Sequence record: OM630585.1
Length of the DNA: 64,000 nt
Strand: one strand, 5' to 3'
Source of the DNA: Escherichia phage vB_EcoM_LNA6
Positions within the stretch are counted from its first letter, which is position 1, and every line of letters starts with the position of its first letter. The position numbers were made by a program, and so were the translations under genes. Positions 59,989 through 60,330 of this stretch are shown here, one piece after another. Below the pieces are notes generated by a model, which worked only from the letters and a program-made list of their open reading frames with translations, was not told the DNA's origin and did not search any database.

Positions 59989-60330
59989 ATGAAGAGTGGT
60001 TCTATAGGGGAAATTGCAACTCAACTTGAGTTTATGAAAATGGGGTATGAAGTTTACTCACCAGCAACTGATAATGCTAGGTATGATTTTATAGCTCATA
60101 AAGACGGAAAACTCTATAAAGTGGAAGTTAAATCCACATCACGGAAAGTCAGAGATGTGTGGAAAGTTCAACTAAAGAAAGTTCATTCAAATAGAAGTTC
60201 AAACAGAATAGCTAACTTTGATAATATGCTAGTTGATTTCTTAGCAGTGTATATTGAACCTCTTGAAAAGGTTATAATTCTTAAAGCTAAAGATGTTACT
60301 TCAAAAACTGAGTTCAGCTTAAGGATTTAG
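59989..60330 (+). CDS. PD-(D/E)XK-like nuclease (putative)
   Basis: 113 aa; YDFIAHKDG...YKVEVKST fits D...E-x-K motif; embedded in tRNA array. Confidence 0.45.
   Translation: MKSGSIGEIATQLEFMKMGYEVYSPATDNARYDFIAHKDGKLYKVEVKSTSRKVRDVWKVQLKKVHSNRSSNRIANFDNMLVDFLAVYIEPLEKVIILKAKDVTSKTEFSLRI

Follow-up and report, generated by a model that had tools for sequence, protein, structure and literature searches.

What does a lone protein-coding gene encode in the middle of a phage tRNA array, and how did it come to lie there? We addressed this question for Escherichia phage vB_EcoM_LNA6 (OM630585.1), a Felixounavirus, using a stretch of 64,000 nucleotides (hereafter the window). A preliminary description, made from the letters of the sequence, had noted an ORF for a small PD-(D/E)XK-like nuclease within the tRNA array and had pointed out that free-standing nucleases in phage tRNA clusters are often homing endonucleases or tRNA-processing or repair factors. 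The ORF is where that description had put it, at 59989-60330 on the plus strand; it runs from an ATG start to a TAG stop, encodes 113 aa, and is the only ORF of at least 30 aa in the six frames of this interval. The surrounding array comprises 26 tRNA genes (58323-63555), all on the plus strand. The ORF begins 15 nt 3' of the CCA end of an intact tRNA-Arg(TCT) gene (59897-59973, +), which forms the left junction, and ends 206 nt 5' of tRNA-Ser(TGA) (60537-60626, +), the next called tRNA downstream. A Shine-Dalgarno sequence, AAGAGG (59978-59983, +), lies 5 nt upstream of the ATG. The array's best sigma-70-like promoter (TTGACA-17-TATAGT, 11/12 matches; 59665-59693, +) is located about 300 nt upstream of the ORF, and no terminator was predicted between this promoter and the ORF. 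When compared with the allele on metagenomic contig L004, the ORF has 21 differing positions, 18 synonymous and 3 non-synonymous (dN/dS 0.036), and dN/dS against more distant paralogs in sister phages, described below, is 0.08-0.15. These comparisons show that the 113-aa ORF is a genuine gene on which purifying selection acts.

On sequence, fold and motif alike, the encoded protein belongs to the PF11645/I-Ssp6803I fold family. Pfam PF11645 (PDDEXK_5) matched at 68.2 bits against a cut-off of 26.1 (E = 9.6e-19; residues 3-111 aligned to profile positions 6-116 of 138), and all 120 homologs among the matches listed carry the same domain. Pfam matches to Hjc (PF01870; 13 bits versus a cut-off of 21.1), Cas4 and NOV_C were each below cut-off. 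The PHROGs match was phrog_5018, a family of unknown function, and an NCBIfam search with the 113-aa protein returned nothing above threshold. PADLOC's best model was the stand-alone 'homing endonuclease' (E = 1.8e-8); its other matches were marginal, and membership in a defense system was rejected. The sole solved relative identified by sequence was I-Ssp6803I (2OST), at E = 1.8e-6 with a single-sequence query and, when a family profile of 100 sequences was used, at E = 1.2e-13 along the entire length. I-Ssp6803I, the founding member of PF11645, is encoded by the group I intron of the tRNA-fMet gene in Synechocystis and is to our knowledge the only characterized PD-(D/E)XK homing endonuclease. 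Its cleavage site is a pseudo-palindrome of 23 bp within a tRNA gene, and it acts as a tetramer, two subunits of which contact the site (PMC3384342).

Structure prediction, proposed at the outset as a check on the nuclease assignment, bore it out. AlphaFold performed poorly from the single sequence (pLDDT 63), and a model built with the family alignment was used instead (AF2; pLDDT 94.2, pTM 0.85). In a Foldseek search with this model, the four chains of 2OST were the only matches below E = 1e-3 (E = 1e-8), and the restriction-endonuclease-like alpha-beta-beta-beta core superposed on I-Ssp6803I with TM 0.83-0.84 and rmsd 2.1-2.2 Å over 111 columns. Far behind came Hjc resolvases (TM 0.5-0.6), SPARDA DREN domains and EcoRV. 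The two peptides on which the nuclease motif had first been proposed, Y32-D33-F-I-A-H-K-D-G40 and Y43-K-V-E46-V-K48-S-T50, are both present in the translation. In the model, E8 lies in helix 1 (residues 2-17), D33 just ahead of strand 2 (34-38), and E46-V-K48 within strand 3 (41-50), such that E8, D33 and E46-x-K48 make up a predicted PD-(D/E)XK motif in the canonical layout. The predicted catalytic codons are at 60010-60012 (E8), 60085-60087 (D33), 60124-60126 (E46) and 60130-60132 (K48), all on the plus strand; these roles were assigned from the alignment together with the general PD-(D/E)XK pattern. Across 100 homologs D33 never varies, V47 and K48 are conserved in at least 90%, and D33 and E46-V-K48 align with the YD and QVK of 2OST. 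The LNA6 protein thus has E46 where I-Ssp6803I has Q.

We then compared the locus with those of related phages, since presence/absence polymorphism had been suggested as a further check, and found it. In 313 phage records there was a match to the tRNA region, and phage LinBro came closest (97.8%). Nearly all of these phages belong to Felixounavirus, the FelixO1-like myoviruses of Escherichia, Salmonella and Shigella. The LNA6 allele of the 113-aa gene occurs in none of these 313 records, and a homolog is found in only 8 Felixounavirus records, at ~70% protein and ~71% DNA identity (tblastn, blastn). The nearest protein among 5.8 billion sequences (97% identical) is encoded on the 2.4-kb contig L004, the only other carrier of the LNA6 allele, where both junctions are identical to those in LNA6. 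Alignment of LNA6, LinBro and Barry defines the inserted unit as leader, ORF and a further 7 nt (59974-60336, +; ~363 nt), with a GC content of 33% compared with 41% for the tRNA array. This unit stands in place of a 38-40-nt spacer, ATTAGTTAGCAGATTACTTAGACGACCTAAGCGGGTCTTC, of HEG-less phages (HEG, homing endonuclease gene), within flanks that are 97-98% identical in the same alignment. Homology to the HEG-less phages restarts at the right flank (CTGTAGGGAGG...; 60337-60440, +), which carries no HEG-linked substitutions. At least 108 records hold the complete empty slot after tRNA-Arg(TCT), which we refer to as slot A.

The flanks of slot A equal those of HEG-less alleles, and no co-conversion tract is visible; the tRNA-Arg gene of L004, for example, is identical to the HEG-less allele. 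A T/C difference at 59969 was considered as a possible HEG-linked substitution and rejected, as L004 does not share it. The LNA6 allele is known from LNA6 and one metagenomic contig, and at this rarity nothing points to a sweep in progress.

By analogy with I-Ssp6803I, the gene could have been expected to reside in a group I intron. This was rejected: an Rfam E-value scan of 57500-64000 returned only tRNAs and noise, with no Intron_gpI match, and both tRNA-Arg and tRNA-Ser are complete, with the insertion lying between genes. The gene is therefore free-standing. It also has the layout of a free-standing phage HEG, with its own Shine-Dalgarno sequence and with the same plus-strand orientation as all 26 tRNAs, between tRNA-Arg and tRNA-Ser, and it looks like a selfish mobile element. 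We read the 113-aa ORF as a free-standing HEG of the I-Ssp6803I/PDDEXK_5 family, with a probability of roughly 0.7. The homing endonuclease option raised at the outset gained support from the polymorphism with its exact junctions, from the use of this insertion point by a competing HNH gene, and from a paralog linked to a swapped tRNA-Ser gene.

If the gene is a HEG, it would be co-transcribed with the tRNAs, probably by read-through from the 59665-59693 promoter in a transcript carrying tRNA-Arg and the ORF, and it would be translated from its own Shine-Dalgarno sequence. The protein would probably form a homo-oligomer, as in the tetrameric I-Ssp6803I. Its target would be the HEG-less allele of a Felixounavirus infecting the same cell, which it would cleave across both strands, in a Mg2+-dependent reaction, at a long and degenerate site; recombinational repair with the carrier genome as template would then copy the gene into the cut genome. 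Since the flanking tRNA-Arg, a tRNA-like element downstream and tRNA-Ser are the same with and without the gene, and the spacer and its junctions are all that is unique to the empty allele, we infer by elimination that the recognition site should include the junction between the tRNA-Arg 3' end and the spacer. Insertion would destroy this site and hence leave the carrier immune. A search for a pseudo-palindrome at the empty slot-A junction gave at best 6/11 pairs, short of the typical shuffle maximum of 7-8 and hence not above chance. When empty slots A and B (the latter described below) were searched for a shared motif, only the generic T-arm GGTTCGAnTCC was recovered (p = 0.14 versus shuffles).

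The Felixounavirus tRNA array is a hotspot for endonuclease genes, of which the literature searched on these phages names only HNH homing endonucleases (PMC8300805). The HNH gene gp44 (FelixO1/FO1a) occupies the same post-CCA junction in 28 records, with the 38-nt spacer kept, and phage Mushroom has the same tRNA variant as FelixO1/FO1a with the slot empty. The LNA6 gene is like the HNH genes gp43 and gp44 (FelixO1/FO1a) in using a slot in the same array and in its patchy distribution, gp44 being at the identical junction. They differ in that gp43 and gp44 have the HNH fold and that gp44 keeps the spacer and occurs in 28 records, whereas the LNA6 insert replaces the spacer and has no database record. 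In FO1a (L021) gp44 lies at 1159-1505, equivalent to 59973/59974 in LNA6; its annotated start, 1113, falls within the tRNA-like gene that precedes it, and the ATG at 1159 is the better candidate for a start. This tRNA-like gene, which FelixO1 and Mushroom carry at the position of tRNA-Arg(TCT) (L021 1058-1145; L022 1143-1226), is a different one, with a CTTCTAA loop, a long extra region and a CGACCA end, and it received no ARAGORN call. A second ORF with an HNH motif (161 aa, ...EFHHLDP...LCANCHREVH) is found between tRNA-Met and tRNA-Ile in FO1a (140-625 of L021), L004 (563-1051) and L006 (1744-2229). In LNA6 the same two tRNA genes are only 2 nt apart (59572/59575), an empty slot, and neither a second copy of the 113-aa gene nor an HNH gene of the L006 type was found within the window.

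The homolog with ~70% protein identity is placed elsewhere in the array, 23 nt after tRNA-Ser(TGA) (slot B), in 8 phages (Barry, Tribble, CHB7, NJ12, EC106, SPJ41, SWJM-02 and LF110P1). Its leader, TTTAAGGTGGT, is homologous to the 5' leader of the LNA6 ORF, TTTAAGAGGT, by sequence reading and alignment. In the slot-B carriers the whole tRNA-Ser(TGA) gene has been swapped for a heterologous allele, so that the cassette (2376-2842 in the Barry locus, L002; equivalent to 60520-60630 in LNA6) replaces the common tRNA-Ser gene in these sister phages, and this heterologous allele (≥98% identity) is confined to the same 8/8 paralog records. Such exact co-occurrence implies that the tRNA-Ser allele and the endonuclease gene move as one cassette, and the linkage bears the signature of co-conversion or cargo. 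Separately, the Barry genes for tRNA-Ile, tRNA-Arg(TCT) and tRNA-Leu(TAG) (1754-1829, 2076-2152 and 3084-3160) are markedly diverged from the LNA6/LinBro alleles, and the DNA between them is nearly identical to that of LNA6/LinBro; this pattern suggests that single tRNA genes are swapped as units even without an adjacent endonuclease gene.

To place the two slots in a wider context, we collected the genomic surroundings of homologs from cultured phages, IMG/VR, a metagenome pattern scan and long metagenomic contigs. After de-duplication, a tRNA gene lay within 150 nt of the homolog in 32/42 lineages. The neighbor was tRNA-Ser in 21 of these 32, compared with an expectation of ~26% from a background that these genes themselves push upward (binomial p = 2.6e-6, a rough value, as the lineages were delimited by hand and are phylogenetically non-independent). 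In 17 of the 21, tRNA-Ser was directly downstream, with gaps of -67 to +142 nt that often meant an overlap with the ORF stop. Three more outgroups (52-54% identity) were also docked at tRNA-Ser, which in one of them, as well as in L032, is the only tRNA of the locus. In total, 35 of ~45 phage lineages adjoin a tRNA gene, 24 of them a tRNA-Ser gene (p ~ 1e-6, likewise rough), and the hosts of these phages span Proteobacteria, Firmicutes and Actinobacteria. Exceptions were a cyanophage homolog between clamp-loader genes, beside an HNH gene, and homologs after the DNA polymerase gene in the T7-like phage KP32 and in Bruynoghevirus JD05; these are classic positions of free-standing HEGs. Among the contexts examined, the LNA6/L004 allele is the only one docked at tRNA-Arg, and the type that most PF11645 members abut, tRNA-Ser, is the next called tRNA downstream of it. 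Since all of its closest relatives dock at tRNA-Ser, the LNA6 allele probably arose when a minimal unit of leader and ORF moved to a new dock within the same array.

That the family docks at tRNA-Ser points to a class of target conserved among its members. It is possible, although we would give it slightly less than an even chance, that the phage branch of PF11645 consists of free-standing homing endonucleases specialized on tRNA genes, chiefly tRNA-Ser, and that the LNA6 gene is a retargeted derivative. If so, members would settle at either end of tRNA-Ser, 5' or 3', sometimes with a replacement tRNA-Ser as cargo, and would drive the turnover of phage tRNA arrays as a convergent, isotype-specific counterpart of the GIY-YIG enzyme SegB. 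The LNA6 gene would have jumped ~560 nt within the array to the tRNA-Arg(TCT) boundary, yielding a naturally occurring pair of enzymes that are 70% identical yet differ in target. In a limited literature search, we found no reports of PD-(D/E)XK HEGs in phage tRNA arrays, nor of an association between PF11645 and tRNA-Ser.

Two features of the docked loci are of separate interest. In many homologs (L009, L023, L030, L032, L044, L045, L049 and L057) the ORF stop lies inside the downstream tRNA-Ser, with overlaps of 6-67 nt. RNase P 5' processing of the tRNA would strip the stop codon from the mRNA, which could limit expression, or the overlap could reflect tight docking only. In addition, an RNA ligase gene (Jada, L029 2007-3074) and a RlaP-family gene (L032 1961-2926) are each found just downstream of a pair of PDDEXK_5 gene and tRNA-Ser; these neighbors may indicate a link to tRNA repair, or may be a coincidence.

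SegB of phage T4 provides the closest functional comparison in a tRNA cluster. It is a free-standing GIY-YIG endonuclease encoded within the T4 tRNA cluster; the T-psi-C motif forms part of its 27-bp site, and the enzyme drives its own inheritance along with that of the neighboring tRNA genes (PMC2330249). A 2026 study found that SegB homologs co-localize with tRNAs, favoring no particular isotype, and that they escape Septu by amplifying tRNA-Tyr (PMC13096335). Like SegB, the LNA6 gene is free-standing, lies between tRNA genes of a lytic phage and is absent from close relatives; the slot-B paralog, which travels with a tRNA-Ser allele, resembles SegB in carrying neighboring tRNA genes; and PF11645 as a family likewise co-localizes with tRNAs. 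Unlike the GIY-YIG SegB, PF11645 proteins are PD-(D/E)XK enzymes and their homologs prefer tRNA-Ser, and the activity of SegB has been demonstrated whereas the LNA6 protein is a predicted nuclease. The LNA6 gene would work like a Seg/Mob element but lies outside the GIY-YIG and HNH protein families of Seg/Mob, its domain being PD-(D/E)XK.

The example of SegB also raises the alternative that the LNA6 gene encodes a homing-type nuclease kept because it is useful to the phage, either by cutting the array and so promoting recombination, segmental amplification or tRNA exchange, as demonstrated for T4/T6 SegB in countering the tRNA-cleaving Septu defense, or by excluding the tRNA region of co-infecting competitors. 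The tRNA-Tyr amplification by this functional analogue (PMC13096335), the strong purifying selection on the 113-aa gene, the constant pairing of the slot-B paralog with a different tRNA-Ser allele and the strong association of the family with tRNA-Ser would all fit. We nonetheless consider a useful nuclease unlikely: nearly all Felixounaviruses do without the gene, the LNA6 window contains no tandem amplification around the ORF, and the slot-A insert brings no tRNA cargo.

A structure-specific DNA nuclease, such as an Hjc-like Holliday junction resolvase or another recombination/repair nuclease, is a less probable alternative still. Archaeal Hjc resolvases (e.g. 1GEF) share the same minimal PD-(D/E)XK core and are of similar size; they gave the second-best fold matches, accompanied by weak Pfam Hjc and PHROG 'Holliday junction resolvase' matches, and resolvase is the annotation given to homologs of the LNA6 protein in Navo, Talia1610 and Racecar. 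Their match in structure and sequence is, however, much weaker than that of I-Ssp6803I (TM 0.5-0.6 versus 0.84; E = 6e-3 versus 1e-8), and the Pfam Hjc match does not reach its cut-off (13 versus 21 bits). Resolvases are conserved core genes, and a resolvase would serve a core function in replication or packaging; the LNA6 gene is instead a presence/absence insertion that over 300 close relatives lack and that moves between slots, and docking at tRNA-Ser would have no rationale. The annotation of homologs as 'hypothetical protein' or 'Holliday junction resolvase' is probably wrong.

It is also very improbable that the gene is a decaying or inactive HEG remnant that no longer cuts anything. The allele is rare, it lacks a co-conversion tract, and its product is shorter than I-Ssp6803I (113 versus 151 aa, without ~30 C-terminal residues), as might be expected of a remnant; yet the reading frame is unbroken, no motif residue is missing, dN/dS is 0.036 over 21 substitutions, and 113-130 aa is the typical length in the phage clade of PF11645. 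Least probable of all is a tRNA-processing or tRNA-repair ribonuclease acting on array transcripts, the other option of the preliminary description, which the position in a tRNA array and the RNA ligase or RlaP-type genes near some homologs would favor but which gained no support, given that nearly all close relatives with the same tRNAs lack the gene, the sole characterized family member is a DNA endonuclease, and no RNA-binding or RNase families were matched in Pfam, PHROGs or NCBIfam.

With a free-standing HEG as the preferred reading, the LNA6 gene represents the I-Ssp6803I family as a free-standing mobile gene in lytic phages. It shares with I-Ssp6803I the Pfam family and fold (TM 0.84, rmsd 2.1 Å, 26% identity), a small single-domain architecture and a tRNA gene as genomic context, a tRNA gene also being the target of I-Ssp6803I. 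Unlike the cyanobacterial, intron-encoded I-Ssp6803I, it is borne by a phage and free-standing in an intergenic slot. The Felixounaviruses form a compact natural experiment, in which an empty slot, a PD-(D/E)XK slot, an HNH gene at the same junction and a slot-B paralog with a swapped tRNA-Ser occur side by side, and this arrangement of two slots and two enzyme classes would be a convenient experimental system. We regard the systematic docking of the family at tRNA genes, above all tRNA-Ser, as more interesting than the gene itself. With the docking pattern, one can test whether homing endonucleases shape the tRNA repertoires of phages, a question made topical by the finding of SegB-driven tRNA amplification against tRNA-cleaving defenses.

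Three stretches of the array near the gene drew attention in their own right. The first, a 430-nt gap (58986-59415), contains no called tRNA, and relatives have only tiny hypothetical ORFs annotated there. The second is a conserved non-tRNA stretch of ~250 nt (59650-59896, +) that begins with the 59665-59693 promoter, right after the equivalent of which Mushroom has an extra ~100 nt. Rfam gave weak, sub-threshold tmRNA-like matches to this stretch (32.5 and 15.3 bits versus 47), and it may represent a small RNA or a leader. The third, a tRNA-like element between the ORF and tRNA-Ser (60441-60524, +), received no ARAGORN call and, in Rfam, only a weak tRNA-Sec match (E = 0.46). It has a 7-bp acceptor stem, a G-CCA end, a T arm, an anticodon arm and a degenerate D arm, with an MFE of -27.4 kcal/mol (z = -2.2). 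The anticodon loop would read C-U-CCA-A-A if a C.A mismatch closes the stem, in which case the element would be a tRNA-Trp, an isotype missing among the 26 called tRNAs. It is conserved in LinBro, Barry, L004 and FelixO1.
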